64,000 nt of DNA from Thermoplasmatota archaeon (lineage in GTDB: Archaea > Thermoplasmatota > Penumbrarchaeia > Penumbrarchaeales > Penumbrarchaeaceae): the NCBI GenBank assembly GCA_029762535.1, contig JARVGK010000008.1:32001-96000 (forward strand), in the 5' to 3' direction. How positions within the stretch are numbered: the first letter of the stretch is position 1; every line of letters begins with the position of its first letter. Below are positions 1-30,535 of the stretch, piece after piece. Position numbers and translations under genes: made by a program. The notes beneath the pieces are model-generated. The model was not told the DNA's origin, searched no databases, and saw nothing but the letters and a program-made list of their open reading frames with translations.

Positions 1-967
1 GATCATCATCCCCGACTCGGCCCACGGAACCAACCCGGCTTCGGCAGTGATGGCCGGGTTCAAGGTCATCGAGATCAAGTCCGCCCCCGACGGTTCGGTG
101 GACCTGGACGCATTGAAAGGCGCCCTCTCCGAGAGGACTGCTGCGTTCATGATAACCAACCCCTCTACCCTGGGCATATTCGAGAAGAACATATGTGAGA
201 TACAGCAGGCATGCCACGATGCGGGAGCGCTTCTGTATTACGACGGGGCGAACTTAAACGCGTTGATGGGGATCTCAAGGCCGGGGGACATGGGCTTTGA
301 CATCATGCACTACAACCTGCACAAGACCTTCTCAACCCCACACGGCGGCGGTGGGCCAGGGGCCGGACCCGTCGCGGTAACGGCCGAACTGGCAAAATTC
401 CTACCCGTCCCGGTGGTGGTGAAGGAGGGCAACACCTACAAGCTAGATCACGACAGGCCTGATTCGATCGGCAAGGTCAAGGGCTTCTACGGGAACGTGG
501 GGGTCCTTATCAGGGCATGGGCCTACATCAAGACCCTTGGGGCGGAGGGGTTGAAAAGGACCTCGGAACTGGCGGTCCTCAATGCATCCTACATAAGATC
601 GAGAATAGAGTCCGTATATCCCGTGCCGTTCAACGCACCGTCGAAGCACGAGTTCGTTGCCTCCGCGGATTTCCTCAAGGAGAATGGGGGTTCCGCCAAG
701 GATGTCGCAAAGATGCTGGCAGAGAGAGGCCTGCATCCGCCTACGAACTACTTCCCCCTTATCGTAAGCGAGGCGCTGATGATCGAACCGACCGAGAGCG
801 AGACGATGGAGGAACTGGACAGGTTCTGCGATGCTCTTCTCGATATAGCCAAGTCGGATCCGGAAGAGTGGAAGAAGGCCCCGCGAACCACGACCGTCTC
901 AAGGGTCGATGACATAACCGCCGCCAAGAACCTGATCCTCAACTGGAACCAGTTACCCAGGGAATGA
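1..967 (+). CDS. gcvPB: Glycine dehydrogenase (decarboxylating) subunit 2, 5'-truncated by window edge
   Basis: TNPSTLG, YYDGANLNA, PLP-lysine motif NLHKTFSTPHGGGGPG, EALMIEPTESE; the frame continues upstream of 47 (IIIPDSAHGTNPASA). Confidence 0.95.
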   Translation, partial: IIIPDSAHGTNPASAVMAGFKVIEIKSAPDGSVDLDALKGALSERTAAFMITNPSTLGIFEKNICEIQQACHDAGALLYYDGANLNALMGISRPGDMGFDIMHYNLHKTFSTPHGGGGPGAGPVAVTAELAKFLPVPVVVKEGNTYKLDHDRPDSIGKVKGFYGNVGVLIRAWAYIKTLGAEGLKRTSELAVLNASYIRSRIESVYPVPFNAPSKHEFVASADFLKENGGSAKDVAKMLAERGLHPPTNYFPLIVSEALMIEPTESETMEELDRFCDALLDIAKSDPEEWKKAPRTTTVSRVDDITAAKNLILNWNQLPRE

Positions 968-979
968 AAATTGAATAGC

Positions 980-2212
980 TCAAAAATCACCCATCATGAA
1001 CAGGGTCGCTATGACCTTGCAGTCGCTTATCATATTATCCACGAGGATGTGCTCGTTCGGCGCATGGGCCTGGTTCAAAACCGTCTCCCAGACAGCCACC
1101 TCGAACCCGGCGTTCCGGAGCATTGCAGCGCAGGTGCCACCTCCTATCCCCCCTGTATAGGCCTTCTTCCCGGTCGCCATCTCGATAGCGCGTGAGAGAT
1201 TTCTTACGATCATGGCATCCGGCCCGGTGGGATGGATGGTTCTCTCGTTGAGGACCACCTCGAGATCGATCCTTACTCCAGTCCTTGATTCTATATCATC
1301 CGCGACCCCTCTCATCACCGATAGGACATCCTCAGCATCATACAGAGGTAAAAGCCGGCAGTCCATGTAAAAGACATCCTCACCAGGCAGCACGTTGATC
1401 CCCGACACACCTGGTTCCCTTTTGGTAGGTTCGAAACTGGAAAGAGGGTGATCGAACGAATCGTCCCTCTGGTCAAAGCGCTCATGGAGCGCCCGATCCG
1501 CTTCGGATCCGAACATCATGGACGCCCTGAAGGCGTTGTTGCCCAGGTGGGGCATGCTTGCGTGACATTGCTTTCCCTTGACCTTTACCCTGACCCAGAG
1601 AAGGGATTTCTCACCGATCTCGATCATTCTCCCTTCAGGCTCTCCGTGATCGGGGACGAGGATGAGGTCGCTATCTCGAAAAACGCCCTCTTTGAGAAGA
1701 TGGCCGATACCTTTCTCGTTCGTCTCCTCCTCGTCGGAGACGAAGAACAGGGCAATATCAAAGGCTGGTTCCGCTCCGGTATCGAGAAGCGCCCTGGCCG
1801 CGAATATGGAGGCGGTAAGGGCCTGTCCGTTGTCCTCGGCGCCCCTGCCCGTGACCTGGCCATCCCGGACCTGAGCGTCGAAGGGATCGGACTCCCATGC
1901 GCCCGGATCGCCGGGCGGGACGACGTCCATGTGGGTGATCACGACGATCCTCCTATCGGAACTCCGACCCTTTATATCGACCATGATATTGGGCCTGAAA
2001 CCGGAACTCATATCACTGTCGGGAGCATCGAACCGCAGTATTTTCCCGAATCCGCGGTCCCGAAGGTATTTCTGGATGAACGCGGCCTTGTGCTCCTCTC
2101 CGCTGCCTCCCGATCCAGGACCTACGGCGGGTATCGAGATGATGTCGGTAAGGAAGCGAACCATCTCATCCTTATGTCCATCTATATGTTCAAACCACTC
2201 TTTATCGGCCAT
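980..2212 (-). CDS. M20 family (ArgE/DapE-like) metallohydrolase
   Basis: Metal ligands THMDVVP, GRGAEDNG, SDEE, AHAPNE; GKQCHAS. Start re-called to MADKEWF at 2212, 1 bp after the cphA stop. Confidence 0.88.
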   Translation of the reverse strand: MADKEWFEHIDGHKDEMVRFLTDIISIPAVGPGSGGSGEEHKAAFIQKYLRDRGFGKILRFDAPDSDMSSGFRPNIMVDIKGRSSDRRIVVITHMDVVPPGDPGAWESDPFDAQVRDGQVTGRGAEDNGQALTASIFAARALLDTGAEPAFDIALFFVSDEEETNEKGIGHLLKEGVFRDSDLILVPDHGEPEGRMIEIGEKSLLWVRVKVKGKQCHASMPHLGNNAFRASMMFGSEADRALHERFDQRDDSFDHPLSSFEPTKREPGVSGINVLPGEDVFYMDCRLLPLYDAEDVLSVMRGVADDIESRTGVRIDLEVVLNERTIHPTGPDAMIVRNLSRAIEMATGKKAYTGGIGGGTCAAMLRNAGFEVAVWETVLNQAHAPNEHILVDNMISDCKVIATLFMMGDF

Positions 2213-2213
2213 A

Positions 2214-4880
2214 TCAGTCCTCATTCGATGGGTCAATTGACTGCATTTCGCGTTTGCGGGACGTGTATTCCCTGAGAGAGTCCTCCTTGTAATCCAATAC
2301 GTCCTGTATGACCTGCTGGACATTATCCGCCTGAAGGACCACCACATCGCCCTTACGTGCCATGTCAAGGGCATACCTTGTCGCTTCCCTGCCGTCGAAC
2401 ACCATCGATATGTCCTCTTCTTTCAAACCGCCTTCGACAAGGCCTTGCTTGACGAGGCCCGCCACCTCCCCCAGGGGGCGGCCCCGCGGGTCCGTATCGG
2501 CGATGACAACATGGTCGTAGTATCTGGAGAGGGTGAGGCCGTACTCCTTGATGTCCTCATCCCTGCGGTTTCCAGTTCCTGCCGCCATGCGGATCCTCCT
2601 GCCCGGTGCCAGATGGGGTAGCAGCTCTCCAGTTGCCTTGATCGCGCCCATGTTATGTCCGAAATCTATTATCGCCTTGAAATCCCGGACCTCGATTATG
2701 TTCATCCTGCCGGGAGATAGGCCCAATGACGGGCTGAAGCTGACCAGCCCCGCCCTTATCTGCTTCTCGTTCAGGCCCAGGGCGGATGCGGCTGCCGCCG
2801 CGGCCATTGCGTTAAGGATGTTGAAGGTCGCTTTGCCCCCAAGGGTTATCGGCACCTCGACCACCTTGGCGACATTGGATGTCCACCCACCTTTCTGAAT
2901 GATGATGGTCTCGTCTTTGACGGTAACGTTCATGCTGCCTTTGTTCAGATTCTCTTTAAGGGCAGGGTTCTCGGGGTCCAATGAGAATAATATCGGCATA
3001 CCGCCTGCCTTGTCCCTGAGTTTGAGAACGATCGGATCGTCCGCGTTCAGGACGGAGTATCCTGTCTCCTTAACGGTCTCCACCACGATACCCTTCAGGT
3101 TCGCCAGGTCCTCCAAGGTATCGATGCCCCCTTCCCCGAGGTGATCGGAGGTCACGTTCAAGAGGACACCAACATCGCTCTCGTAAAAACCAAGCCCCCT
3201 TCTGAGGATCCCGCCCCTGGCCACCTCAAGGACCGCATGGTCTATGGTGGAATCCATAAGTACTACCTTTGCCCCGCCCGGGCCGCTGTAATCACCGACC
3301 AGTATGGGATCGTTGTTAACGACCACCGCATCCGTGGAGGTCATACCCACCCTGGCGCCGTTAAGTTCCAGAATGTGGGAGATCAGGCGGACGGTGGTCG
3401 TCTTGCCGTTGGTCCCGGTAACGGCAATTATCGGCACCTTGAACTCCTTTCCCGGAGGGAAGAGCATGTCAAGCACTTTTGCCGAGACGTTCCTGGGCTT
3501 TCCCTCCGAAGGGCTCAGGTGCATCCTGAACCCCGGGGCTGCATTGACCTCGATAACGGCCCCGCAGCCTTCGCATATCGGTTGGCTGAGATCGTTGGCG
3601 ATCATATCGATCCCCATCACGTTGAGGCCCACGATCTTGGATATCCTCTCGGCCATGGCCCTGTTGACCGGGTGCACATCATCCGTGACGTCGATCGCCT
3701 TCCCTCCTGCGCTCAGATTGGCCGTCGATTTGATGTAGACCTTCTCGCCCTCCCTCAACACCGTTTCGAGCGTCATCTGTTTGAACTTGAGCAGCCTCTC
3801 CGTCATGTAGTCTATCTTGATCCTTGTCAGGTTCTTTTCGTGTCCGAAACCCCTCGCTGGGTCGCTGTTGATCGCTTCGATGAGCTCCCTGATCGTTGAG
3901 GTGCCATCTCCAACAACGTAGGCTGGCTCTCTTAATGCAGCCGCGGTGAACTTCCCGTCTATGACGAGTATCCTGAAATCGAAACCCGCGATGAATCTCT
4001 CGATGAGCACCGTTCGGTTGTACTTCCTGGCCACCTCGTAGGCGATCTCGAGTTCCTCTCGTGTCCTGATATCGGTGGTTATCCCCTTTCCATGGTTGCC
4101 GGAGAGAGGTTTCACCACAACGGGATAACCGATCCTGTCCGCAATTCGGCATGCCTCATCGAGCTCCCAGGCCGAATAACCCTTTGGTACCGGAATACCC
4201 ATACGATCGAGCATCTCTTTGGCCCTCTCCTTGTCATCGGCGATCTCCACGCCTATGGATGAGGTGTTGTCCATCATCGTCGCCTGTATCCTTCTCTGGT
4301 GGACGCCGTATCCCAGCTGGACATAGCTCTCGTCGTTGAGCCTTATGACCGGTATATCCCTCTTCTTGGCCTCATCGACGATGGACTGCGTCGAGGGGCC
4401 GTAGAGGTTCTTTTCCCTTATCTCCTTGAGTTCGTAGACGACCTTCCTGATGTCCACATCCTCTCCCTTGAAAAGGCTCTCAACGATACGTACGGCGGCC
4501 CTGCCCGCCTCGATCCCGACCTGCTCATCACGGTAGCGGAAGACCACATGATAGATGCCCTTCCTTTTTGTGTCGAAGGTCTTGCCGAAACCCACCTCGG
4601 TCCTCGCCAGACACTGCAGTTCTATTGAGACATGTTCGACCACGTGCCCGGCCCAGGTCCCGTCTTCGATCCTCTTGAAGAAACCTCCCTCCGTACCAAC
4701 TGAACAACGATGTTCTCTAAGCGAAGGGATCGCCTCTTCGATCCTCTTCCTGAACCCCGGGACCTTGTCCGTGGGCGTTTCCTCCAGATCGCCGATGTCC
4801 AGTTCCATGAACACTGTCGGATATCGGCTGTAGTAATTCGGACCTCTGAGAGCGCGTATCTCCAATATTTCCATATTCAT
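2214..4880 (-). CDS. cphA: Cyanophycin synthetase (CphA1 type)
   Basis: N domain (LRGPNY, HRC-x19-HVVEH), QLGYGVHQRRIQAT, ATP-grasp (VVKPLSGNHGKG, NLSAGG, EVNAAPG), Mur-ligase-like domain (VTGTNGKTTT, LEVARGGILRRGL, DHLG, PGRMN); about 888 aa. Start placed at MNMEIL after a G-rich SD. Confidence 0.95.
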   Translation of the reverse strand: MNMEILEIRALRGPNYYSRYPTVFMELDIGDLEETPTDKVPGFRKRIEEAIPSLREHRCSVGTEGGFFKRIEDGTWAGHVVEHVSIELQCLARTEVGFGKTFDTKRKGIYHVVFRYRDEQVGIEAGRAAVRIVESLFKGEDVDIRKVVYELKEIREKNLYGPSTQSIVDEAKKRDIPVIRLNDESYVQLGYGVHQRRIQATMMDNTSSIGVEIADDKERAKEMLDRMGIPVPKGYSAWELDEACRIADRIGYPVVVKPLSGNHGKGITTDIRTREELEIAYEVARKYNRTVLIERFIAGFDFRILVIDGKFTAAALREPAYVVGDGTSTIRELIEAINSDPARGFGHEKNLTRIKIDYMTERLLKFKQMTLETVLREGEKVYIKSTANLSAGGKAIDVTDDVHPVNRAMAERISKIVGLNVMGIDMIANDLSQPICEGCGAVIEVNAAPGFRMHLSPSEGKPRNVSAKVLDMLFPPGKEFKVPIIAVTGTNGKTTTVRLISHILELNGARVGMTSTDAVVVNNDPILVGDYSGPGGAKVVLMDSTIDHAVLEVARGGILRRGLGFYESDVGVLLNVTSDHLGEGGIDTLEDLANLKGIVVETVKETGYSVLNADDPIVLKLRDKAGGMPILFSLDPENPALKENLNKGSMNVTVKDETIIIQKGGWTSNVAKVVEVPITLGGKATFNILNAMAAAAAASALGLNEKQIRAGLVSFSPSLGLSPGRMNIIEVRDFKAIIDFGHNMGAIKATGELLPHLAPGRRIRMAAGTGNRRDEDIKEYGLTLSRYYDHVVIADTDPRGRPLGEVAGLVKQGLVEGGLKEEDISMVFDGREATRYALDMARKGDVVVLQADNVQQVIQDVLDYKEDSLREYTSRKREMQSIDPSNED

Positions 4881-4888
4881 ACCCCCCG

Positions 4889-5761
4889 TCATCTGCAAAC
4901 CAGTTCCAAGCATTCCATGTCCTCTGGCTTGAGGTACTTCATTTCCTTTAAATTATAACCATAACCCCGGACCAGAGTATGAAGATGTACGTTCTCCACA
5001 GCGATCGCATCACCTTGTTTGATAGTTGTGATGTTCGAATACCTGATGTGGCGCCCGTCGAATATCACAACAAGACCCGATCCTATGGCCTTTATTATAT
5101 GCCCCCTCTCTATGACGACACCGGTGTTCTCCCCGAGGCCCAAGCCTATATGTCCTGGGTTGGTGCTCGCTATCTGCATCAAGCGGCTGAACCTTCCCCT
5201 TTTTATGAAATGACTGTCGATAATCACGTTGTTTATGAGTCCGATCCCGGCGGTCACATTGACGGTTCCTTTAAGGATCGCTTCCGAGGCCTCCCCGCCG
5301 TAGATCATGGTCTCCGACATCGCGCTCGCTCCCGCGCTAGTTCCGGCGATGATCGCTCCGTCGTTGAAATACCTGGACCTGACCTCTTTGAGGATCCCGG
5401 TCCCTCCGAGAATGCTTGTTATGCGGAGTTGGTCTCCGCCTGTGAAGAATATGATGTCCGCCTCATGGACCCTGGCTATTAACGACCCATCATTCCCCTT
5501 ATCACGACTATCAACATGCATCAGATCTATATCGTTCCCGCCTATCTTCCCGAAGGCTTTGAGATACTGTTTCCCAACCTCGTTTGGGATCTCGCTCGCG
5601 GTCGTGATGACCTCGATCCTGACGACATCCTTCCTCGCCAGGGATATGATCGTCCTCAGGATCGAAAGATCGTGCTTCTTGTCCTCGTTGCCTCCGACGG
5701 CGACCAGGATCCCTTTCGGTTCCTGAAAGGACGACGGCCCTCTTTCCGAGAAATGGGTCAT
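4889..5761 (-). CDS. cphB: Cyanophycinase (peptidase S51), intracellular
   Basis: VGGNEDK, FFTGGDQLRI, nucleophile GTSAGA, IDSHF..RGRFSRL, GLGE; no signal peptide; directly upstream of cphA. Confidence 0.93.
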   Translation of the reverse strand: MTHFSERGPSSFQEPKGILVAVGGNEDKKHDLSILRTIISLARKDVVRIEVITTASEIPNEVGKQYLKAFGKIGGNDIDLMHVDSRDKGNDGSLIARVHEADIIFFTGGDQLRITSILGGTGILKEVRSRYFNDGAIIAGTSAGASAMSETMIYGGEASEAILKGTVNVTAGIGLINNVIIDSHFIKRGRFSRLMQIASTNPGHIGLGLGENTGVVIERGHIIKAIGSGLVVIFDGRHIRYSNITTIKQGDAIAVENVHLHTLVRGYGYNLKEMKYLKPEDMECLELVCR

Positions 5762-5787: not shown

Positions 5788-5795
5788 TATTTAAA
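5788..5795 (-). promoter_or_regulatory. Candidate archaeal TATA box of the cphB-cphA-M20 operon
   Basis: TTTAAATA on the minus strand about 27 bp upstream of the cphB ATG, a spacing typical of a leaderless archaeal transcript. Confidence 0.55.
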
Positions 5796-5923
5796 CCCAC
5801 GCTCCAACCGGCCTATAACCGCTCACGGCGATGTATGTTCCAGAATACCGGGGTATATACATTAATAAAGCAAGAATCGATGCGGTATGGGCCGGATCAC
5901 TTAACGGTAAAGGATGTGCGGAT

Positions 5924-7345
5924 ATGACGGATAGCGACAACACGATGGAGATCATCGTCGTCGGACTGGGTGCGAGCGGCCTCTACGCGGCAAAGAGCGC
6001 ACTCAGCCAGAACAGACAGGGCCATGTGACCATCATCGAGAAAAGGGATTTCGACCAGTTCTCACCCTGTGGCCTACCGTTCGTCATAGAGGGTATCGTT
6101 CCTGACTTCGAACACCTCAAACACGTCGTCCCCGAGGTAAAAGGGAAGCTATCCAAGCTCCTGAGGCACGAGGTCCTCTCGGTGGATCATGATAACAGGA
6201 CCTTGAAGGTAAGGGACCTCTCCACGAATGAAGATAAGGATATCGGGTACGACGCATTGATACTTTCGAACGGGTCGATCCCAGTGAACCTTCCCATCCC
6301 GGGAGCGAAAGAACTGCTGGGAAAAGGGGTATTCTTCTGCTCGAGCATCGACGATTCATCGGACATACTTGAAACCGCACTCAACGCTCCAGGAAAAAGG
6401 GCCGTTGTGGTCGGAGGAGGTGCCATAGGCCTCGAGGTCGCAGTGGCCTTGAAGGAAAGAGGGTTGGACGTATGCGTGACGAAGAGAACCCCTCCCCCGT
6501 TCCCGAGGAACCTCGACCCCGAAATGGGGAAACTGATAACCGACCATCTCATAGAGCTGGGCATCGATGTGAGGTTCGGCAAGGGAATCGACGCCATAAA
6601 CGGGAGCGACATTGTGACCTCCGTCACCATTCAGGGGGAGGAGGTCCCCTGCGACCTCGTCGTGATGGCGGTAGGTACACGACCCAACACCTCACTGGCC
6701 GAAAGCACAGGCTGCTTGACGGTCAGGGACGGTATAGTGGTCGATAACAGGATGGAGACGACCGTCAAAGGGATCTTCGCCACGGGGGACTGCGTCAGGA
6801 CATATTCCCGCATCGACGGCACGTCGGCCACCATGCAGCTTGCCACATCCGCTTTCAGGCAGGGCATGGTAGCCGGGACCAATGCCGCAGGAGGCAATGT
6901 GGGATATGATGGTGTGCTCAACACGTTCCTCACCAAGATAGGGAGGTTGGAGATCGCATCCACCGGATACACGCTCGAGCAGGCGAAGGCCTTGGGATAT
7001 GATGCGATCGGGATATCGACCAGGAAGGAGATCAAGCCCCATTACATGCCCGACTGCCCCGATATCAACCTCAGGGTCGTATGCGAGAAGATTGACGGCA
7101 GGATACTAGGCTTCCAGGCCGTCGGCGAACAGGGCGCCGGGTGGAGGGCAAATATATTCGCCCTTGCGATACAGGCAAGGATGACCTTGCAGGATATCAT
7201 GGATGCTGAGCTGTCCTACAATCCTCCGGTATCCCAGATGTACGATCCGATCTACCAGCTTGTCGAGATAGCCCTCAAGAGGCTGAGGCTGGAATTCCCT
7301 TCCCCGAAGGAGGTCTTCATTCCGGATGAGCAGAAGAGGTGGTAG
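5924..7345 (+). CDS. FAD-dependent pyridine nucleotide-disulfide oxidoreductase (NADH oxidase / CoA-disulfide reductase family)
   Basis: GLGASG dinucleotide fold, single-Cys FSPCGLP, VVGGGAIGLE, IFATGDC, YNPP C-terminal motif; start probably MTDSDN at 5924. Confidence 0.88.
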   Translation: MTDSDNTMEIIVVGLGASGLYAAKSALSQNRQGHVTIIEKRDFDQFSPCGLPFVIEGIVPDFEHLKHVVPEVKGKLSKLLRHEVLSVDHDNRTLKVRDLSTNEDKDIGYDALILSNGSIPVNLPIPGAKELLGKGVFFCSSIDDSSDILETALNAPGKRAVVVGGGAIGLEVAVALKERGLDVCVTKRTPPPFPRNLDPEMGKLITDHLIELGIDVRFGKGIDAINGSDIVTSVTIQGEEVPCDLVVMAVGTRPNTSLAESTGCLTVRDGIVVDNRMETTVKGIFATGDCVRTYSRIDGTSATMQLATSAFRQGMVAGTNAAGGNVGYDGVLNTFLTKIGRLEIASTGYTLEQAKALGYDAIGISTRKEIKPHYMPDCPDINLRVVCEKIDGRILGFQAVGEQGAGWRANIFALAIQARMTLQDIMDAELSYNPPVSQMYDPIYQLVEIALKRLRLEFPSPKEVFIPDEQKRW

Positions 7346-8070
7346 TCACGCCAGAGGAAGTTATCGCATCGAAATGGCATCTGCTCAAGGATGGGACCTT
7401 CGAGATCGATGGCGGATTCCTGGTATACGGCGTCCAGAAATACTACGGGAAGAAATTGACCGCGCATCTCAAACCACTATATGTCGAATCGGGGGATGAA
7501 AGGATACTGATAGACACCGGGATCGGCGATCCCCCGGAGAGGTATTCCTCGACCTACAAGGTGAGGAAGGATGAGGACCTGATGGGATCTCTCAAAGGGA
7601 TCGGCCTCTCTCCCGAGGACATAACGATGGTGATCAACACCCACCTTCACTTCGACCATACGGGCTACAACACGTCTTTCACCAACGCGAGATTCCTCTC
7701 CCAGGTCGATGAGATAAGGTACAGCGCACAGCCAGACAGGTTCCAAAAAGGGGCTTATCTCAAGGACAATATCAAGGACATCGATTTCTTGGCGCTCGAT
7801 GGGGAATGCGAGGTGGCGCCAGGCGTGACCGTTATACCCACACCAGGTCATACGCCCGGACATCAATCGGTCATAGTCGAGCTTGAGCAAGAGGTCCTTA
7901 TCTATACGGGCGATGTCTCTCCCTTGAGGATCAACCTGGAAAAGGACCTGATCGTAGGGGTCCTCCACGACCCTGTGGCGGCGCAGAGGTCCCTATCGAT
8001 TTTATGCGCCCTCTCGGACTGGTTCCCTGAAAAGCTCAAGAGATACATATTCAGCCATGACATGGAGTGA
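7339..8070 (+). CDS. Metallo-beta-lactamase-fold hydrolase (AHL-lactonase-like subgroup)
   Basis: LIDTG, THLHFDH, TPGHTPGHQS, TGD, terminal SHD; overlaps the upstream stop. Confidence 0.85.
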   Translation: MVVTPEEVIASKWHLLKDGTFEIDGGFLVYGVQKYYGKKLTAHLKPLYVESGDERILIDTGIGDPPERYSSTYKVRKDEDLMGSLKGIGLSPEDITMVINTHLHFDHTGYNTSFTNARFLSQVDEIRYSAQPDRFQKGAYLKDNIKDIDFLALDGECEVAPGVTVIPTPGHTPGHQSVIVELEQEVLIYTGDVSPLRINLEKDLIVGVLHDPVAAQRSLSILCALSDWFPEKLKRYIFSHDME

Positions 8071-10748
8071 TCCATACGCTTACCGAGAAGGAGATGAAAC
8101 AGAGGGTAAAGGAGGAGGCCTCGAGGGACCCTGACCGCTTCTTCCCCACCGGGAAGATGAAGGAAATGGGGCTGATGAGAAGGACATGCCCTAAATGCGG
8201 GACCTTCTTCTGGAGCGCTGATGCGGAACGGACCCTCTGCGGTGAACCAGCATGCCTTGGGGGCTACTCCTTCATAGGAAGGAAGAGCTGCAAGCATAGA
8301 ATGGATTTCATCGGCGTCTGGAAGAGGTTCTCCGAACTGTTCTCCAGTAGGGGTTACACCCCCATCAAGAGATATCCATCTATCTCACGATGGAACTCGA
8401 CATCGGAGTTCACCCTGGCCTCGATCACCGACTTTCAGCCCTACGTCGTCCGCGGAGCGGTCAAACCACCGGCCAACCCCCTGGTGGTACCTCAGACATG
8501 CCTGAGGTTCAACGATGTGGACAACGTTGGAATAACGGGCAGGCACAACACGGGTTTCATAATGATAGGGCAGCATGCCTTCGAGCCGGAGCGGAGTTTC
8601 GATCAGGACAGGTATTTCGAAGATATCCATGCCTGGCTGGTTGAGGGCATGGGGATCCCTCTCACGGAGATCGTCTATCATGAGGACGCATGGGCAGGGG
8701 GTGGGAACTTCGGATGCTCCCTGGAGTTCTTCTCCGGGGGGCTCGAGATCGGGAACCAGGTCTATACTATGTACGAGCGGGATGGAGATTCCCTTAAAGG
8801 ACTTGATATTCGGGTACTTGACATGGGAATGGGGCAGGAGAGGCCAGCATGGTTCTCGCACGGCACCCCTACGTCCTACGAGCCCAACTTCCCGACCGTT
8901 ATGGAGAGGCTGTTCAAGATCGCCGGGATCGGTCCTGAAGGTGAGGAGAAGGAGCTGATGATGAGATTCCTGCCCTATTCCGGCCTCCTGAACCTTGAGG
9001 AAGTGGATGACATCGACAAAGTATGGGCTGATATAGCCGAAAGGATAGGAGCCGAAGAGGGGCTGCTGCGGCGCAGCGTTATGATCAACGCGGCCCTCTA
9101 TTCGATAGCGGACCATGCCAGAGGGCTTCTGTTCGCCCTTACGGACGGGGGGCTGCCATCGAACTCCGGCGGAGGATACAATCTCAGGCTCATCTACCGC
9201 AGGGCCATGAACTTCATAGAGAAGTACGGCTGGAACCTGGACATGGGCGATGTCTGCCACTGGCATGCGGAATACCTTAAACCCCAGTTCCCAGAGATGC
9301 TGGATTCCTTATCCGAGGTGCGTGAGATCATTGACCATGAGAGGGGGAAATTCCTCCAGACCAGAGAGAAAGCCAGGTCTACCGTCATAAAGCTCAAGGA
9401 AAAGGAGATGCGCGGGCAGAGGGTCTCAGTGGATGATCTTATAATGCTCTACGATTCGCAGGGTATTACCCCTGATCTTATGCTGGACTCGGGCCTCGAC
9501 GTATCGGTCCCGCCGGACTTCTACGCCAGGGTCTCGGCCCTGCACGAAGCAACGGAGCCATCGGCACGAACCGGGAAGGAGTTCCAATACGAACTTTCCA
9601 CCATACCCGAGACGAAGATACTTTATTACGACGACTACCTCATGGTCGAGTTCGAGAGCGAGGTCATGGCTGTGATCGAAGATAACGTGATATTGAAGGC
9701 TACCGCCTTCTACCCGACCTCGGGGGGGCAGCTCCATGACATCGGTTCCCTCCATGGGCCATCCGATCTCCGGGTAACGGAGGTCTTCAAGCAGGACAGG
9801 GTCATCCTCCACAAGGTCAGCGGAGATCTCTCAAAATGGAGCGCTGGCACAAAGGCCAGAGGGCATATAGATGAGGAGCGCAGGAGACAGCTTGCCCAGC
9901 ACCACACATCGACCCACATCATAAACGGAGTGGCCAAATCCATACTGGGAGGCCATATCTGGCAGGCCGGCGCTGAGAAGACCGAGGAGAAGGGCAGGCT
10001 CGACATCACCCATTACGAGTCTCTGAGCCCATCTCAGCTCGAGTCGATAGAGGAGAGGGCCAACGAGATAATTTCCTCATCCCTGCCAGTCAGATCGATG
10101 GTACTTGCCAAGGACGAGGCCGAGAGAAGGTTCGGATTTCGGCTTTATCAGGGTGGTGCCGTCCCCGGCGAGACGCTGAGGATCATCGACATCGACGGGC
10201 TGGATACTGAGGCTTGCGGCGGAACACACCTGAAGAACACGTCCGAAGCGGTTCGCATAATACTTCTCGGTACCAAGAAGATCCAGGACGGCATCGTCAG
10301 GATAGAATACGTGGCGGGCAAAAGAGCGAGGGATATATACGAGTCCGATCTGGACCATCTCCTTCGGGCCATGGCCGTGCTTTCGATAGATGATCCGCAC
10401 GACCTCGTTAGTGCCTGCGAGCGCGTCTTCAACCTCTGGAAAACGGCCAGAAAGCTACGCGCTAGGATCAGGTCAGCAAATCCCGATAGTGCGAATGGGG
10501 AGAAGGAAGATGCCCTTGTAATTCTGAGAGGGGATCCTGCCTACCCTTATCTTGAGTCCTATCGGAAATTGGGCCGGCCTACGGACATCGGAGGGGTCGA
10601 TCCCAACTCGGTGAAGAAAATAATGAGGCCGCACGAGTATGTGACCAGGGCCGCACAATCCTTCAAAGTGCAGAAAGAGCATCTGGGAAAGACCATCTTA
10701 AGGTTTCTATCAGAGACAGATTCGTTCGAGGAGGACATACAGAGGTGA
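8067..10748 (+). CDS. alaS: Alanine--tRNA ligase (archaeal type)
   Basis: N-terminal CPKC..FW zinc ribbon, ASITDFQP, ITGRH, IADHARG, FYPTSGGQ, editing motifs HHTSTH and CGGTH. Confidence 0.96.
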   Translation: MIHTLTEKEMKQRVKEEASRDPDRFFPTGKMKEMGLMRRTCPKCGTFFWSADAERTLCGEPACLGGYSFIGRKSCKHRMDFIGVWKRFSELFSSRGYTPIKRYPSISRWNSTSEFTLASITDFQPYVVRGAVKPPANPLVVPQTCLRFNDVDNVGITGRHNTGFIMIGQHAFEPERSFDQDRYFEDIHAWLVEGMGIPLTEIVYHEDAWAGGGNFGCSLEFFSGGLEIGNQVYTMYERDGDSLKGLDIRVLDMGMGQERPAWFSHGTPTSYEPNFPTVMERLFKIAGIGPEGEEKELMMRFLPYSGLLNLEEVDDIDKVWADIAERIGAEEGLLRRSVMINAALYSIADHARGLLFALTDGGLPSNSGGGYNLRLIYRRAMNFIEKYGWNLDMGDVCHWHAEYLKPQFPEMLDSLSEVREIIDHERGKFLQTREKARSTVIKLKEKEMRGQRVSVDDLIMLYDSQGITPDLMLDSGLDVSVPPDFYARVSALHEATEPSARTGKEFQYELSTIPETKILYYDDYLMVEFESEVMAVIEDNVILKATAFYPTSGGQLHDIGSLHGPSDLRVTEVFKQDRVILHKVSGDLSKWSAGTKARGHIDEERRRQLAQHHTSTHIINGVAKSILGGHIWQAGAEKTEEKGRLDITHYESLSPSQLESIEERANEIISSSLPVRSMVLAKDEAERRFGFRLYQGGAVPGETLRIIDIDGLDTEACGGTHLKNTSEAVRIILLGTKKIQDGIVRIEYVAGKRARDIYESDLDHLLRAMAVLSIDDPHDLVSACERVFNLWKTARKLRARIRSANPDSANGEKEDALVILRGDPAYPYLESYRKLGRPTDIGGVDPNSVKKIMRPHEYVTRAAQSFKVQKEHLGKTILRFLSETDSFEEDIQR

Positions 10749-16976: not shown

Positions 16977-19900
16977 TCAATCCCCGGACATCTCATTCAG
17001 GAGGTCCTGAAGCGATTTTTCCCTGTCGGTGGAGACGGTCCTGTCCGAATCTATTGTATCTGACGTGCTTACCTCCTGAATGGTCTCGGAGGCCACAAGG
17101 TTCATCCATGCATCCTCCGATGTCTCATCGACGAGCGTCGGGGCCTCCTGTTGGGCCTTTTCTGCCGGCTCGGTCTCCGAAGGCTGTCCAGATGCAGCGA
17201 TACCGGCCGATGGGACCGATCTTCCCAGTCCCTTCGGCTGAGGCGCCGTCCTCGCCCCGTTCGAACTCGCCATCCCGTACTCGGACTCGAGCTCCGAGAG
17301 CTCGGATTCGATATCGCGATGTTTCTCTTCGGTCTTTCTCTTCACCAGGAAGTAATATAGGCCTCCCAGGACCATCATGATCAGGACGATGACTATGATC
17401 CCGATGATGATATACAAGCCAATGGGGTCCTCCTCAGGCGGGGCGACCTGAACCGGTCTCTGCGTTATCTCAAGAGGGACCGAGACGTTCCTGATTATGC
17501 CCCAGTTCGACTCGAAAGTGAAGTTCAGGGTATAATTGCCTACCGTTGCGTTGGGAAGGATCTCGACATCGAGGTTGATCACCAGCTCCTGCTGGATATC
17601 CAGGCGGTAAATGCCGTTCCTGATCAGGAGCCACTCGTATCTGATGAGGGAACCCATCGGTCCGTCGTGGCCTTCTAGATCAATGATCGGAGTGATGTTC
17701 ATGGGCTTCTGCCCGATGTTCGCGATGTCGAAGGATAGGATCGAAGTTGGGGTCCCCTGCTGCAGTTTAATCCTCTCGACATGGGAGGATACCGTAAAGG
17801 CATAGTTCTCCTCGTTGGAGACGGAGAACGAGAAGACACCGTTCGTGCAGTTTCCGACGAACTTGTTCTGGGCCACGGGGACAACGGTCCAGTAATAGGT
17901 TCCGAAATCCAGACCGATCGGGTCGTATGTAGTCCCCTTGAAGACCTCCGTCCAGAGTGATGAGGACTTGAGCTCGAGGACGTCGAGCTTCCTGTTCGAC
18001 ATGTATATCTTATAGGATACGTCCTCTGGATCGAAGAACGTCACGTTCCATTCCAGTTTAACGTCGTCCGGATCCGCGAAATCCGTTCCGTCAGGCGGCC
18101 ATACCAGGGTCGCGATGGGATATCTCAGCGAGGTGTCGACCAGAATATTATAGACTGTGGATGTGAAGACCGTGCCCGCTCCATCCTGGCATTTGAACTG
18201 AATGAAATTATCATATGTGTCGCTGAGGCCCTTGAGCTCCAGGACGAATTGATAATTGTCCTGGTGGAAGGATGTCCATATGTCCTGAACGTATTTCCAC
18301 GAGGCGATCCCCAGCCATTGAACGGGATCATTTAGCCCATTGTTGCTGAAACGATACATCACCGACTGGGATATTATCGTGGATCCGCCCAGGTCCGTCA
18401 TGTTTATCTCGAAATCGATGGCGGTATAGGGGACGATCTCATCCAGGTCCGGTCTTATCACCGTGAAGGTGGTCGGGTCCATGTCGATCATTATCCGAGC
18501 GCTCTCCGCTGGACCTATGTTGCCGACGAGGTCCTCCGCCCATACGTATATCGTATGCGCTCCCTTGCCTGGAAGCTCAACGACCGCGTCGAGGCCCGAT
18601 TCCACCCGAGTTCCGTTCCTCGTTCCTCCGTTATCTTCGAATGACCAATAGTAGAACAGGACGCCTGAAGCGGTCTCCGGAGCGCTCTGCCAGCTCAGGA
18701 ACACCTCCGTATCGTTGTCGTACCTGGTCCTCTGGTCGTTAAGGTCATCCGCATGCAGTATCACCGTTGGGGGCTTTCCCGGCGGATCCGCATCCGTGGA
18801 AAGACGGAATGAAAGATCGGATGTGTCCGTATCGGGAGGGACCCCGGAAATGTTGATCCTGTACCTGTATTCCGTTTTCGTGGTGTTCGGTGAGACCAGG
18901 GTGATATTGAGGGGCTCCCCGGGCATATGGGAGCTTGTGAACATCTCATCATCCTCGTCCCACAGCGTCAGCATGTAGCTGTCCAATGGCGGATACAGGT
19001 CCGCTCCGACGTAGGCCACAACGGGACCCAAGAAGTTCACCCATTCCCCTGCCCGGATCCAGCTCTGGTTCTGGATCGGCCCCTGGACCTCCGAGCTGAC
19101 AGAAAGAACGCCCCTCAGCTCCAGCTGATTACGAACTGTCAGGAAGTTCCTGACGATCAGCTCATCGGGGGCCACGTCATATCCCATGATCCTCACGGTC
19201 ACGCTGCGGTCGATTATGTTCGGCCTGTTGGTCCAGGTCCAGTTGAACTTGATCCACATGTCCAGGTTCAGGAAGACCCCATCGACGGATACGCTCCGAT
19301 CCACTAGGAAGCCCCTGTTTCCCGGATCATGCTCGACCCAAGTCCCCTGGGTGTGATTGTAAACGACCGAGAATGCACCGTCCCTGTGGTTGAATATGTA
19401 TCTTACCTCGCTGATCTCGGACACATCCTCGACCGCTTTGACCATGGATGTGAAATGGTATGGCTTGAGCATGGAATATGCAACGTTCGCACCTTCCGAA
19501 GGGTCGTCGAAGGAGACCCTCTGTATGGCCAGCCTGTATGGGATGCCGAACCTCCATATCCCATGCCTTCCCGAACCATATATCCAGAGGTCCCTCGTCT
19601 CGGGGATGAATATGGAAGCGTGATTGTCCAGGTCCCCCGGGTGCACCAGATAGTATTCCGGATACCATTTCCCCTCCAGTATCCTGTACTTCGACATGTC
19701 GTTGTTCTGGCTTCCCCCCGTCATGATTATCTCCCTGGTCAGGGGATCGTAGCTCATCTTGGAATACGCCCTGCTCGATGGTTTGAACTGCGCGTCGATC
19801 TCGGTCCAGGTCTGGGTGGAGAAATCGTAGGTCCAGAGGTCGTTCTCCTCCTGGGCGTTGGCCCCTCCTTCTTTAAGGTACCATCCCCCGAAGAGATACA

Positions 19901-21776
19901 GCAGATGGTCGTCCGGCTCGTACATTAGCGCGGCGCCGTAACGCATCCCTGGCGTGGTCCCTGCGGGGTTCAGCTTGCTGAAGGCCGTGCTCGCCGGGTC
20001 GAAGCTGTAGAAATCGTCGTATATTATCCGGTCGGAGGAGGTCGTTGGATGGTAGTAGCCTCCGTAGAAGTATATCTTGCCGTCCTTGGTGTTGAGGACC
20101 ATATCGAAGCCCTGCCTGGGACCGGGACCTGCCGGAGCCCAGACCACAGACCATTCGAACGTATCGAGATCTATCTTCCACATGTCGTCGCGGTTGTAGT
20201 AATACGTGGTCTGGCCCTGTCGCGTGGTGTACCCGCCGCCGTATATGAACACCTCGTTCCTGTCGGGAACGTAGCAGATCCCGGCATTGCTTCTCGATCC
20301 AGGATTGCTCGATCCGCTGTTATAAATCGGACCTTTCCAATCCCTGGTCATCAGGTCGAAATAATAGATATAGCCAGATCCGTTGCCTCCCCATCCCGAT
20401 ACCAGGTTCGGACCGATATAATACAGCCTCTGCTGCACCTCGTTGTGTGCGAAGATGCCCCCGTTCACCGAACTCACAGATGTGTTGAGCGGGAACCGGG
20501 TCCACTCCTTTGTCGTCATGGTCATGTAGTTCATATCCCTGTATCTGTACGGATATGAGTACGGCTCGGAGGAGTACCACCTGCCCTGAAAAACGAAGAA
20601 GAGATCGGCGGCGGATGAATAATGGGTCGTGTAGAACATCCTGCCGCTGGGGCTGTCCCCCGCAGAGAAATGCTTCCATGACCATGACTGCATATCGGCG
20701 TTATATGTCCACAGCGTCCTGTTCATCGTGGTCTGCTGCATGGTCTGGCGGCCGCCCCATATGTTTACAGTGAGATCGGTCCCCGTTCTCCTGAAGAACA
20801 TCTTCGAGCCGTGGAGGACCATGGACTGCATGCTGATGTCCGTTGAGAGCTGGGTCCACTGATCGGACGGGATGTTGTACACCCAGAAATCGTTGAGATA
20901 GACATTATTATCAGTCCCTATCCTGTGTCTCCCTCCGTAGAGGTAGATGTTCTTGTTGACGGTATCTATGCACATGTCGTGATCGTAACGCTCGATGAGG
21001 CCTGAACCGGAGCCGTCGTTCAATGATACCGGGGCCTGCATGGGCTTGCTGATATCGATCTTGTAAAAACCGGTCAGGTTGTCGTAGTCGTTCTGGGCCT
21101 TGCCCATGTGTATATAGAGCATGCCCATATCCCCGTCCATGGGATCGATGACCATGGGCGCCCCGGCCCTCCTTGTGGTGAACACAGAGGATGAGAGCCT
21201 TGTCCAGGCCTCGGTGTCCATGTCGAATACCCAGAGATCGTTGACCATGGACCCGTCCATGTATCCGCCGTAGATGTATATCTTCCCGCGTATCTCGTCC
21301 ACGGCGTAGGATGAAAGGTATCTGCCGCCAGGGCTCGTCGCTTTTTCGACAGATACCCATCTCTGGGTGTTGATGTCGAAGTAGAACATGTCGTTGATCG
21401 TGTTGTGTGTTATCTGACCCCCGAAACCCGTGCTCTGATAGCCGCCGCCGTATGTGTATACCCTTCCCGAGCTCGCGTTATATCCCATAACCCCGGACTC
21501 CCCGGACTGATGATAGCTGAACCTCTCCCACAGCCCCCATGGCTCGCTCCTTACCGCATCGGGAGGCAGCGGGATCCCCATCTCGAGGACCTCCTCTTCT
21601 TTGATAAGGTTGTCCGACATCTCCTCGATCTGAACAATGACATCCACATCGTCGGCCCCTGCGACATCCTGGCTCCCTTCGCTAAGGAGCGGGATCGGCA
21701 GTGCCATGATAAAGGTCAAAAACAGCGCAGCTAACATCTTCCACGAGGGATTGGATGGCCTGAACACGTGCATCAC
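16977..21776 (-). CDS. Large membrane-anchored Kelch-repeat surface protein with Ig/FN3-like stalk
   Basis: Signal peptide; about a dozen Kelch repeats (YxYGG...DxWx(F/Y)D...W); WAEDLVGN and YYWTV Ig-like modules; C-terminal TM and acidic tail. Confidence 0.82.
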   Translation of the reverse strand: MMHVFRPSNPSWKMLAALFLTFIMALPIPLLSEGSQDVAGADDVDVIVQIEEMSDNLIKEEEVLEMGIPLPPDAVRSEPWGLWERFSYHQSGESGVMGYNASSGRVYTYGGGYQSTGFGGQITHNTINDMFYFDINTQRWVSVEKATSPGGRYLSSYAVDEIRGKIYIYGGYMDGSMVNDLWVFDMDTEAWTRLSSSVFTTRRAGAPMVIDPMDGDMGMLYIHMGKAQNDYDNLTGFYKIDISKPMQAPVSLNDGSGSGLIERYDHDMCIDTVNKNIYLYGGRHRIGTDNNVYLNDFWVYNIPSDQWTQLSTDISMQSMVLHGSKMFFRRTGTDLTVNIWGGRQTMQQTTMNRTLWTYNADMQSWSWKHFSAGDSPSGRMFYTTHYSSAADLFFVFQGRWYSSEPYSYPYRYRDMNYMTMTTKEWTRFPLNTSVSSVNGGIFAHNEVQQRLYYIGPNLVSGWGGNGSGYIYYFDLMTRDWKGPIYNSGSSNPGSRSNAGICYVPDRNEVFIYGGGYTTRQGQTTYYYNRDDMWKIDLDTFEWSVVWAPAGPGPRQGFDMVLNTKDGKIYFYGGYYHPTTSSDRIIYDDFYSFDPASTAFSKLNPAGTTPGMRYGAALMYEPDDHLLYLFGGWYLKEGGANAQEENDLWTYDFSTQTWTEIDAQFKPSSRAYSKMSYDPLTREIIMTGGSQNNDMSKYRILEGKWYPEYYLVHPGDLDNHASIFIPETRDLWIYGSGRHGIWRFGIPYRLAIQRVSFDDPSEGANVAYSMLKPYHFTSMVKAVEDVSEISEVRYIFNHRDGAFSVVYNHTQGTWVEHDPGNRGFLVDRSVSVDGVFLNLDMWIKFNWTWTNRPNIIDRSVTVRIMGYDVAPDELIVRNFLTVRNQLELRGVLSVSSEVQGPIQNQSWIRAGEWVNFLGPVVAYVGADLYPPLDSYMLTLWDEDDEMFTSSHMPGEPLNITLVSPNTTKTEYRYRINISGVPPDTDTSDLSFRLSTDADPPGKPPTVILHADDLNDQRTRYDNDTEVFLSWQSAPETASGVLFYYWSFEDNGGTRNGTRVESGLDAVVELPGKGAHTIYVWAEDLVGNIGPAESARIMIDMDPTTFTVIRPDLDEIVPYTAIDFEINMTDLGGSTIISQSVMYRFSNNGLNDPVQWLGIASWKYVQDIWTSFHQDNYQFVLELKGLSDTYDNFIQFKCQDGAGTVFTSTVYNILVDTSLRYPIATLVWPPDGTDFADPDDVKLEWNVTFFDPEDVSYKIYMSNRKLDVLELKSSSLWTEVFKGTTYDPIGLDFGTYYWTVVPVAQNKFVGNCTNGVFSFSVSNEENYAFTVSSHVERIKLQQGTPTSILSFDIANIGQKPMNITPIIDLEGHDGPMGSLIRYEWLLIRNGIYRLDIQQELVINLDVEILPNATVGNYTLNFTFESNWGIIRNVSVPLEITQRPVQVAPPEEDPIGLYIIIGIIVIVLIMMVLGGLYYFLVKRKTEEKHRDIESELSELESEYGMASSNGARTAPQPKGLGRSVPSAGIAASGQPSETEPAEKAQQEAPTLVDETSEDAWMNLVASETIQEVSTSDTIDSDRTVSTDREKSLQDLLNEMSGD

Positions 21777-29800: not shown

Positions 29801-30535
29801 ACCCTGGTCCTGAGATGGTCCGTGCCAAAAGATGACGGCGGGTCCGCGATAACGACCTTCATCATCTTGAGAGGGGGAGGACCGGATGATCTGTCGTTCC
29901 TGGCAAGGATCCCCGCTGTGACGTATTACAGCGATCACAATCTCGACAACGGTAAAAGGTACTTCTACAGGATCTCATCCGAGACAAGATACGTCTCGGG
30001 AGAACCCTCCGATATCGTGAGCGGATCCCCATGCGGGCTGCCCTTCCCCCCCTCAGGTCTGCGGGGGAAGGTGGAACGCGGAAGGGTCGAGTTGAGCTGG
30101 GACCTGCCTTACAGCGACGGCGGAAGGTCCATTGTGGGCTACAACATCTACAGGATAGACCAAGAGGGGGTTGAGACCGTTCTTGCCAGGAACTCGAGCA
30201 TGAGATCGTTCGCAGATCATCCGTCCCAGGGTAGGTATCGTTACGCGGTTAGCGCAACCACGGAAGCGGGAGAAGGAGCCAGGACCGTATCCAGGCCCGT
30301 CACGCTCGATATTCGGAGGCAGATGATCGCGGGAACCGCCATCATTTCACTGGTACTGATCGCGATATGCGTTTTCGTCGGCATAAGGATATATTCCTTC
30401 CGTAGAGCGAGGGCGAGCGCCGATCGGGCCTGGAAGACGTTCGAGATGGACACGCTCAAGCTAGGACGCGCCCGATCGCTCCCGCCGCCGAATCGAGGAC
30501 GTCGGCTCCTACCACCAGGGGAGGGGCGAACCTGA
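26822..30535 (+). CDS. Secreted, membrane-anchored SBBP beta-propeller + fibronectin type III repeat protein
   Basis: Signal peptide; SBBP repeats (YSTFLGG..D.G..IAID..G..YVSG.TSS.DFP); about 7 FN3 repeats (W.PP..DGG..I..Y); C-terminal TM. Confidence 0.85.
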   Translation: MRGSSIAFITLFMLMLSAAVQIGMAEDDAHAGPTSTPSCDLDHVKAAPTRDVHEAIIGSRLIGGSGKEFISSCCDDGGDLIVAGWTTSDDLDAEGAPLHGSYAGDKDIFIARMGMNLSISSLALIGGSMAEEPTGIGVLPDGSVYVAGWTASSDLPAGERSLFNASAGGEDGLLMVLSSDLSRIVFSTYFGGSQNDRINAADAGPDGTIYITGITFSGDLPTTEGSYRNASEATVPYGPDAFVARIDTDGRDIVYSTFLGGIRADSGTAIAIDGSGAAYVSGETSSKDFPITPGVYSNENIYYNYPDIFIAHLSSNGGTLISSTVIGGLYTDQALSVRIGSDGLFVTGRSMSYDFPLTNDAFDSSNPVGNRRSYDGLLLKMPLDLTELDFSSYLGSTENDWISGLDLDEVGNIYITGLVSNARQFVTSHASSPLYNGGDDAFLAITDLSNNLQYFTFIGGGGSDQGTRVLHTSPGRCTIVGQTCSVNFPIRHDTGQDLRGISDAFIMVHATPTPPSAPKIVTSRAGDSRIEIEWAAPKDDGLCSISGYNLQRICVDGNITISLPIQFSYIDTEVKNGIEHEYRVSAVNRLGEGERSEPVIVRPGTIPSEPTNFSIMTGKGFASLEWDPPSHDGWVGIEGYIIQKKDSGSDPIEVLTSNGSYEDSDVKAGSYYSYNVRAYNAMGIGPKSPTIAVRIPTLPDRVRDLKAIPQPGAVLLSWVPPTDDGGAPIEEYVIHRRTAGSGNETSIRWPGLEFLDEGLTPGVEMEYRVAASNLFGEGEPTYWTRVEPYGPPGPPTLLKADAGDGVIVIEWDPPSCDGGRSLSGFRIYKSVDGSDFELAADLSLCSIFFDRDVVNGVLYSYRITARSRAGESEPSSVMNARPVGPPSTPLGLTASKFDGYVELRWSAPMRDGGSELLGYRLLRSAHGNPLRHYRDLPPSTRFSDSDVMNGIEYSYALTAFNEVYEGDMSGKVRAMPIGLPEAPFDVRIDELDQTLVLRWSVPKDDGGSAITTFIILRGGGPDDLSFLARIPAVTYYSDHNLDNGKRYFYRISSETRYVSGEPSDIVSGSPCGLPFPPSGLRGKVERGRVELSWDLPYSDGGRSIVGYNIYRIDQEGVETVLARNSSMRSFADHPSQGRYRYAVSATTEAGEGARTVSRPVTLDIRRQMIAGTAIISLVLIAICVFVGIRIYSFRRARASADRAWKTFEMDTLKLGRARSLPPPNRGRRLLPPGEGRT

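Follow-up and report, generated by a model that had tools for sequence, protein, structure and literature searches.

Introduction

Cyanophycin is a nitrogen-storage biopolymer that is widespread in nature and of interest to industry. Three kinds of enzyme have been tied to the last step of its breakdown, the hydrolysis of β-Asp-Arg dipeptides. IaaA, an Ntn-hydrolase (PF01112), and IadA, an amidohydrolase (TIGR01975), are promiscuous housekeeping enzymes, and IaaA from cyanophycin clusters has been found to hydrolyze β-Asp-Arg (PMC10206079). The third kind, CphZ/AotO, is an M14 enzyme of the AstE/AspA family from Acinetobacter baylyi and Pseudomonas aeruginosa, and derives from a desuccinylase family (PMC9974463). 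Sharon and Schmeing reported that iadA and iaaA are missing in 27% of cphA genomes and that further dipeptidases are to be expected, and named S9, M14 and esterase-like proteins, with no M20 enzyme among their candidates; about a quarter of cphA-bearing genomes are left without any known last-step enzyme (PMC9974463, PMC10206079). Here, we analyze a 64,000-nucleotide stretch of DNA from a Thermoplasmatota archaeon (the window; contig JARVGK010000008.1, positions 32,001 to 96,000), in which the genes for cyanophycinase (cphB), cyanophycin synthetase (cphA1) and an M20-family metallohydrolase form a tight operon on the minus strand in the order cphB-cphA1-M20. An earlier note on the window had proposed the M20 enzyme as a new type of β-Asp-Arg hydrolase. 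Comparative genomics gives strong support for a functional linkage of the M20 gene to cyanophycin metabolism. We read its product as a probable di-metal hydrolase of β-Asp-Arg/Lys, and as an extra gene copy that goes along with the cyanophycin genes it is a candidate fourth kind of such enzyme.

The M20 enzyme shares features with each of the described systems. Like CphZ/AotO, it is a zinc-type metallohydrolase from a desuccinylase-like lineage, its gene lies inside cphA-cphB clusters, and it also occurs in cphA-less genomes, a distribution that for CphZ has been read as scavenging; the reaction proposed for both is the conversion of β-Asp-Arg/Lys to Asp and Arg/Lys. The two belong to unrelated families, however: CphZ/AotO has a mono-zinc M14 fold, whereas the M20 enzyme is a di-metal, two-domain dimer. 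Moreover, the activity of CphZ is proven, whereas that of the M20 enzyme is proposed from sequence and context. IaaA occupies the same slot in an archaeal cph operon as M20, yet neither IaaA nor IadA has any sequence or fold relationship to it, and in contrast to these promiscuous enzymes M20 is a cph-specific extra paralog. Within the M20 fold, the di-zinc enzyme PahZ2 (7ljh) cleaves both alpha- and beta-aspartyl amide bonds and so provides a precedent for beta-aspartyl chemistry (PMC13017698). Unlike the enzyme described here, PahZ2 is periplasmic and bacterial, acts on oligomers, and is distant in sequence (18%).

Our literature search found no paper tying M20 enzymes or Thermoplasmatota to cyanophycin, and no published description of the complete cyanophycin operons that we document in this phylum. 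The locus supplies a cloneable candidate from a fourth, unrelated fold, together with a natural control (its housekeeping paralog) and three residues to mutate. If the assignment is right, the enzyme would represent a new and convergent way of filling an enzymatic role that is already known, and the archaeon would have duplicated and retuned an enzyme of its own to complete a pathway that has its closest relatives in bacteria.

Results

A dedicated M20 paralog follows cphA in four archaeal families

The M20 product matches PF01546 (Peptidase_M20; 88 bits) and PF07687 (M20_dimer; 59.7 bits), and scores 499.9 bits over residues 5-406 against the NCBIfam model NF010589 (PRK13983, “M20 family metallo-hydrolase”; cut-off 333). 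It falls below the equivalog cut-offs for the N-succinyl-L,L-diaminopimelate desuccinylase DapE (TIGR01246, 106 bits, cut-off 361.8; NF009557, 127 bits, cut-off 284) and the cut-off for the acetylornithine deacetylase ArgE (TIGR01892, 105.8 bits, cut-off 297.7), and contains neither of the CphZ/AotO-type domains PF24827 and PF04952. The literature search returned no description of the function of the housekeeping NF010589 enzyme and nothing relevant on MJ0457.

Two NF010589 genes are present in the source genome, one beside cphA and the other on contig 7 (8544-9758). Among 41 relatives, each cphA-positive genome has a second NF010589 gene that directly follows cphA in the same orientation, contig permitting (the exceptions are contig ends in G017 and G022 and a cut gene in G014), and a single copy is present in the genomes without cphA. 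All cphA-linked copies group in one clade, with a support of 99 in an IQ-TREE phylogeny of 52 rows (Shimodaira-Hasegawa-like approximate likelihood ratio test) and of 99 in a FastTree phylogeny of 115 rows that took in species representatives from all of GTDB. In both trees, this cph-type clade lies among archaeal NF010589 copies of the window's class, apart from the housekeeping copies of the same genomes. The housekeeping protein matches the same equivalog model, is 42-50% identical to the cph-type M20, and has catalytic and leaving-group residues in common with it; unlike the cph-type gene, it is never found beside cphA, and it scores above the cut-off in 35 of the 41 relatives, with or without cphA.

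Of 21 placed clade members, 18 lie directly after an intact cphA and one lies after a cphA remnant (G033). The remaining two are L117, located at a contig start where its neighbor is not visible, and L088, without cphA nearby. The clade covers families f1, f6 and f9 of the window's class and, outside that class, family f30 of the same phylum (G082 and G112, taken as L092 and L095), and across the four families the cph-type proteins are 50-67% identical, with gene order and junction conserved. The synteny of cphA and M20, whose recurrence in relatives the earlier note had singled out as informative, is thus found in four GTDB families. Every family-f1 locus examined has the junction GAGGAT-TGA/TAG-N(1-2)-ATG, a recurrence that goes beyond chance, and in the other families cphA and M20 are separated by a spacer of 22-23 nucleotides (nt) with a purine-rich motif. 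Similarly, the seven best matches in metagenome contigs of the Joint Genome Institute (JGI) all have the order cphB-cphA-M20. In one genome, G020 (L013/L075, C2:40813-41370 region), an in-frame TGA breaks the cphA-linked M20 gene into two frames that overlap, and cphA is intact; this copy is either a pseudogene or an assembly error.

The cassette is absent as a unit from cphA-less congeners

A gene for a CoA-disulfide-reductase-like protein and gcvPB flank the block in the window and in G004 (genus g5). Two cphA-less congeners, G010 and G015, have the same flanking genes 50-80 nt apart with nothing between them. M20 orthologs at the same locus in relatives lacking cphAB had been named beforehand as grounds to refute the proposal; in these two genomes, all three genes are missing there, and at this locus the outcome thus favors a functional link. 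Since the flanking genes differ between genera and the block itself is intact, the conserved unit is the three-gene block. The CoA-disulfide-reductase-like flank ortholog of G010 (L169, C14:5553-6995) has one in-frame TGA; this could reflect recoding or a sequencing error, or the gene may be a pseudogene.

Archaeal CphA1 shares 62-67% identity with its counterparts in Clostridia, Acidobacteriota and Bacteroidales. Among the nearest bacterial CphA1 loci, three, from Tindallia, Anoxynatronum and a Bacillota metagenome-assembled genome (MAG), consist of cphB-cphA or cphA alone, with no M20 gene or known dipeptidase adjoining cphA in any of the three. We rejected the idea that M20 arrived from bacteria together with cphBA, based on the lack of M20 in these three bacterial loci and the position of its clade among archaeal copies of the window's class. 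The first of these observations fits an addition of M20 from the host's own gene stock, and the second fits a duplication of the native housekeeping NF010589 gene. In a quick CphA tree that set P0038, P0041 and P0093 against L076-L095, bacterial sequences interleave with two archaeal groups: the Clostridial CphA1 proteins of the same three loci fall inside the archaeal family-f1 clade, and the CphA1 proteins of Acidobacteriota and Bacteroidales fall between the two archaeal groups. The cphA and M20 phylogenies are broadly congruent, with two major groups and shared sub-clusters, in quick trees whose several weak nodes keep this from being strong evidence.

M20 or iaaA as the third member of the archaeal operon

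The earlier note had reported no IadA-, IaaA- or CphZ-like gene in the window, and our profile searches agree. The source assembly as a whole (2.96 Mb in 102 contigs, with the window as contig 91; 93% complete) contains no IadA above the cut-off, no Asparaginase_2 protein (PF01112, IaaA) and no PF04952 match, so the iadA or iaaA gene that might have been present elsewhere in the genome is not found across a 93%-complete assembly. Among 24 genomes of the GTDB family, there is likewise no IadA above the cut-off, no Asparaginase_2 (0/24) and no CphZ-like protein. We considered and rejected two possible hidden enzymes. A TIGR01975 match scores 32 bits against a cut-off of 331 and is a generic amidohydrolase of 498 amino acids (aa); the single PF24827 match is an M14 carboxypeptidase of ~900 aa that is also present in cphA-less members of the family.

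We sampled 401 Thermoplasmatota genomes across the phylum and found cphA1 in 38. Of the cphA-positive genomes, 21 lie outside the class of the window; iaaA (Asparaginase_2) lies inside the cph operon in nine of them, and a cph-type M20 gene follows cphA in two. Eight of the nine operons with iaaA have the order iaaA-cphB-cphA. The ninth, in G240, has the order cphB-cphA-iaaA with an overlapping junction, which places iaaA in the exact position of M20. In family f1, the cph-type M20 is present and IaaA is entirely missing, and G042 has cphA and cphB, only a canonical M20, and an unlinked IaaA homolog. Because iaaA holds this slot elsewhere, and because IaaA acts on β-Asp-Arg, the third member of the archaeal operon is in some genomes the M20 gene and in another the gene of a proven isoaspartyl dipeptidase. 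We rejected an extension of this pattern to the whole NF010589 family as an archaeal isoaspartyl dipeptidase complementary to IaaA, as six relatives hold both.

Overall, the dedicated clade, the presence and absence of the gene in step with cphA, the empty site and the operon slot held in common with iaaA argue that the adjacency of M20 and cphA is not incidental. The earlier note had cautioned that it might be, given that similar M20 genes are common in archaea, and this caveat can be removed: the M20 gene is a cph-specific second paralog that is gained, lost and inherited with cphBA. The split copy in G020 would fit a reading in which M20 came to lie beside cphA by historical accident, as a paralog that is drifting or has no function. 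We disfavor it as highly improbable, since the clade has intact frames, invariant catalytic residues, 50-67% identity over four families and a conserved order and junction, and the M20 protein yields a confident structure model with a predicted local distance difference test score (pLDDT) of 96.

A DapE-like active site carries clade-specific residues

The structure of the M20 protein was modeled with AlphaFold2 from 77 sequences (pLDDT 96, predicted template modeling score 0.92). The top 30 Foldseek matches to this model are all M20 enzymes. The best fold match is DapE, especially the closed, product-bound structure 5vo3 (template modeling scores 0.79/0.85), followed by carnosinases, ArgE and CPG2, with PahZ2 (7ljh) at rank 46. 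DapE (5vo3, 3ic1) also gives the best sequence match (85 bits) and has the same metal ligands, base and trans-subunit histidine; in contrast, overall identity to DapE is only ~22%, and the M20 protein scores far under the cut-offs of the DapE models.

In the alignment to H. influenzae DapE, residues H94, D127, E161, E162, D188 and H383 of the M20 protein align with DapE H67, D100, E134, E135, E163 and H349 (D188 with E163 only after a one-residue local shift), and H217 corresponds to the trans-subunit oxyanion histidine (H194'). The metal ligands, the general base and H217 are invariant in 77 family sequences. Residues N273, R286 and T360, found family-wide, match or fall within two residues of DapE N245', R258 and T325, which hold the alpha-carboxylate of the leaving amino acid (PMC5919655). 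Two residues that bind succinate in DapE, R178 and Y197' (PMC12731327, PMC10809365), are replaced by E201 and M220 in the M20 protein, and the enzyme is therefore not a DapE.

We compared 19 cph-type with 58 housekeeping sequences and identified nine positions that are conserved in the former and different in the latter. Three of these nine, H189, E376 and N380, are invariant and flank metal ligands: H189 adjoins D188, and E376 and N380 lie in the loop preceding H383. The clade signature is T133/H189/E376/N380, and the housekeeping copies have A/G/S at position 189, S/A/G at position 376 and E/D at position 380. In DapE, an asparagine of the equivalent loop (cjDapE N336, HiDapE N345 type) forms a hydrogen bond with the carboxylate of the ligand that occupies the succinyl pocket (PMC12731327). 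The cph-type acyl pocket, in which an acidic residue appears to be shifted and an asparagine and a histidine added, could fit the carboxylate and ammonium groups of a beta-aspartyl moiety.

Among the JGI contigs, we also identified “HEG” variants with H189, E376 and G380. One of them, L177, lies in a cphB-cphA-M20 cassette, and two, L179 and L207, lie elsewhere, in one case beside a DUF1611 protein and in the other close to an M19 dipeptidase, contexts that give no functional hint. These variants may represent a wider sub-family around the cph-type clade.

Proposed reaction and competing assignments

We propose that the M20 protein, as a cytosolic, dimeric, di-metal enzyme, would perform the last step of cyanophycin breakdown. 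CphB would cut the polymer to β-Asp-Arg (and β-Asp-Lys) dipeptides, and M20 would then hydrolyze the isopeptide bond that joins the alpha-amino group of Arg to the beta-carboxyl of Asp, yielding Asp and Arg. By homology to DapE, the metals would be bound by H94, D127, E162, D188 and H383, with E161 as the general base and H217 of the partner subunit forming the oxyanion hole. The alpha-carboxylate of Arg would be held by N273', R286 and T360. The three clade-specific residues would adapt the acyl pocket to a beta-aspartyl (2-aminosuccinyl) group, with N380 and H189 binding its alpha-carboxylate and E376 its alpha-ammonium.

This scheme draws on the likeness of the two substrates. The beta-aspartyl group is a 2-aminosuccinyl group. 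In β-Asp-Arg, it forms an amide with the alpha-amine of a basic amino acid, and in N-succinyl-diaminopimelate, the DapE substrate, a succinyl group does the same; the two molecules thus closely resemble each other. DapE itself is said, in the title of a 2003 paper by Broder and Miller that PMC3092495 cites, to be able to act as an aspartyl peptidase with Mn2+. Of the earlier proposal that M20 is a new β-Asp-Arg hydrolase, the linkage to cyanophycin genes has stood up, and the catalytic part continues as something we infer.

Several observations weigh against this assignment. The related genomes that carry the linkage are non-independent samples. Three cphA-positive genomes (G029, G082 and G112) carry both a cph-type M20 and Asparaginase_2 homologs, and M20 is therefore not always the sole candidate. 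At the level of the active site, the roles of the clade-specific residues are read from an alignment to DapE at 22% identity, the leaving-group pocket looks alike in both paralogs, and the comparison of 19 cph-type with 58 housekeeping sequences revealed no clade-specific acidic residue obviously suited to the Arg guanidinium group.

Two genomes that retain M20 without an intact cphBA pair also count against it. A complete Thermoplasmata chromosome, CP070629 (G033), keeps an intact M20 gene with no cphB found; its cphA is reduced to a 193-aa C-terminal fragment with Mur_ligase_C only (L071, C1:302000-320000; 6781-9798), and an IS200-type transposase gene lies ~700 nt beyond M20. The MAG G041 (L088, JAUVCJ010000093.1, 2675-5674; 2.3-Mb assembly) keeps an M20 gene with neither cphA nor cphB found, and this cph-type gene is the only NF010589 copy found in it. 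Upstream of M20, in the place of cphBA, G041 has two genes: a 210-aa open reading frame without a Pfam match comes first and overlaps the gene for an AbiEii toxin of 316 aa (Pfam). We read the former as an AbiEi-type partner in a toxin-antitoxin module. H189, E376 and N380 are retained in both genomes. As M20 is intact in both, its use does not depend strictly on cyanophycin made by the cell itself. Its persistence without cphAB could reflect a recent loss, the scavenging of external β-Asp-Arg as proposed for CphZ/AotO, or a broader substrate range.

Survival in these two genomes would also be expected of a general dipeptidase or an N-acyl-amino-acid deacylase that lacks beta-aspartyl specificity, acting on an alpha-dipeptide or on acylated Arg, Orn or Lys and placed in the operon for nitrogen and amino-acid co-regulation only. 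Consistent with such an enzyme, the family-wide substrate-carboxylate residues of the housekeeping NF010589 protein are all kept in M20, and the HEG variants L179 and L207, with H189 and E376, occur away from cph genes. We nonetheless judge a general enzyme to be unlikely, because the presence and absence of the gene track cphA closely, with a clean empty site, and because three positions adjacent to the active site are fixed differently from the housekeeping copy. Moreover, a generic activity would be redundant, since the housekeeping copy is retained alongside in cph-type-positive genomes where this can be assessed.

An activity on the polymer or on oligomers, rather than on the free dipeptide, would keep the tie to cyanophycin. 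Cyanophycin side chains end in Arg with a free alpha-carboxylate, a feature recognized by M20 carboxypeptidase-type enzymes. The synthetase gene, rather than cphB, is the partner to which the M20 gene appears to be coupled, and PahZ2, with the same fold, degrades oligo-aspartate at alpha and beta linkages (PMC13017698). In such a role, M20 might trim (β-Asp-Arg)n, strip side-chain Arg, or shape the CphA1 primer pool. This seems to us quite unlikely: the DapE-type lid closes over small substrates (PMC10809365), a better fit to a dipeptide; dipeptides are already produced by CphB; and iaaA, encoding a dipeptidase, holds the same operon slot in a relative. We consider it more doubtful still, and very unlikely, that the cph-type M20 opens a second turnover route on oligomers or polymer, by Arg release or end trimming, or sets the primer pool or chain length. 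We continue to favor cleavage of the free β-Asp-Arg/Lys dipeptide.

Organization of the window locus

The features of the locus are collected in Table 1. On the minus strand, the cphA stop codon TGA (2216-2214) is followed by a single base (2213) and the ATG of M20 (2212-2210), with the sequence GAG GAC TGA t ATG GCC; the 1-bp gap described in the earlier note is thus read directly, and what the note observed at the locus is confirmed in full. The GAGGA motif formed by the final cphA codons (GAG GAC) is Shine-Dalgarno-like and lies 6 nt ahead of the M20 ATG. Motif and gap together suggest that cphA and M20 are translationally coupled. Between the cphB TGA and the likely cphA ATG lie 8 nt (cGGGGGGt) that are likewise Shine-Dalgarno-like. 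From the gene spacing, M20 is predicted to be co-transcribed with cphB-cphA, and the element TTTAAATA is a putative promoter of a short-leader cphB-cphA-M20 transcript.

Table 1 Features of the cyanophycin locus and its flanks (positions in the window).
Feature	Position	Strand	Evidence
gcvPB, 3' part; right-hand flank of the cassette	2..967	+	NF003346, 491 bits
cph-type M20 metallohydrolase, 410 aa	980..2212	-	Pfam, NCBIfam, AlphaFold2 model, clade placement, signature residues
cphA-M20 junction, GAGGAC TGA T ATG	2210..2222	-	Sequence reading; kept in family-f1 loci examined
Cyanophycin synthetase CphA1	2214..4880	-	TIGR02068, 1163 bits (cut-off 850); N domain, ATP-grasp, Mur ligase M and C
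Cyanophycinase CphB, 290 aa, S51 family	4889..5761	-	TIGR02069, 244 bits (cut-off 127)
TTTAAATA, TATA-box-like element, ~29 nt upstream of the cphB ATG	5790..5797	-	Sequence reading only
CoA-disulfide-reductase-like flavoprotein; left-hand flank, divergent from cphB	5831..7345	+	Domain profiles

We took 2212 as the right M20 start because the NF010589 match covers residues 5-406 of the protein that begins there, and on the same ground rejected an upstream ATG at 2374. The likely start of cphA is the ATG at 4880 or 4874; the longest frame runs from 4913, and the database form has 886 aa. At the N-terminus of CphB, no signal peptide is evident when its first residues are read without a predictor. 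The M20 and gcvPB genes are convergent, with 12 nt separating their stop codons and a T-rich sequence after the M20 stop.

We noted several further features of cphA genes in the phylum. The cphA of G007 has an in-frame TAA, and some Thermoplasmatota have two cphA genes: in G247 they are in tandem (C8:16552-21719), the second without about the first 70 model positions, and in G109 they lie on C8 and C218. Elsewhere in the window there are very long open frames, at 57339-63554 (minus strand, 2071 aa), 16977-21776 (minus strand, 1599 aa) and 26822-30535 (plus strand, 1237 aa).

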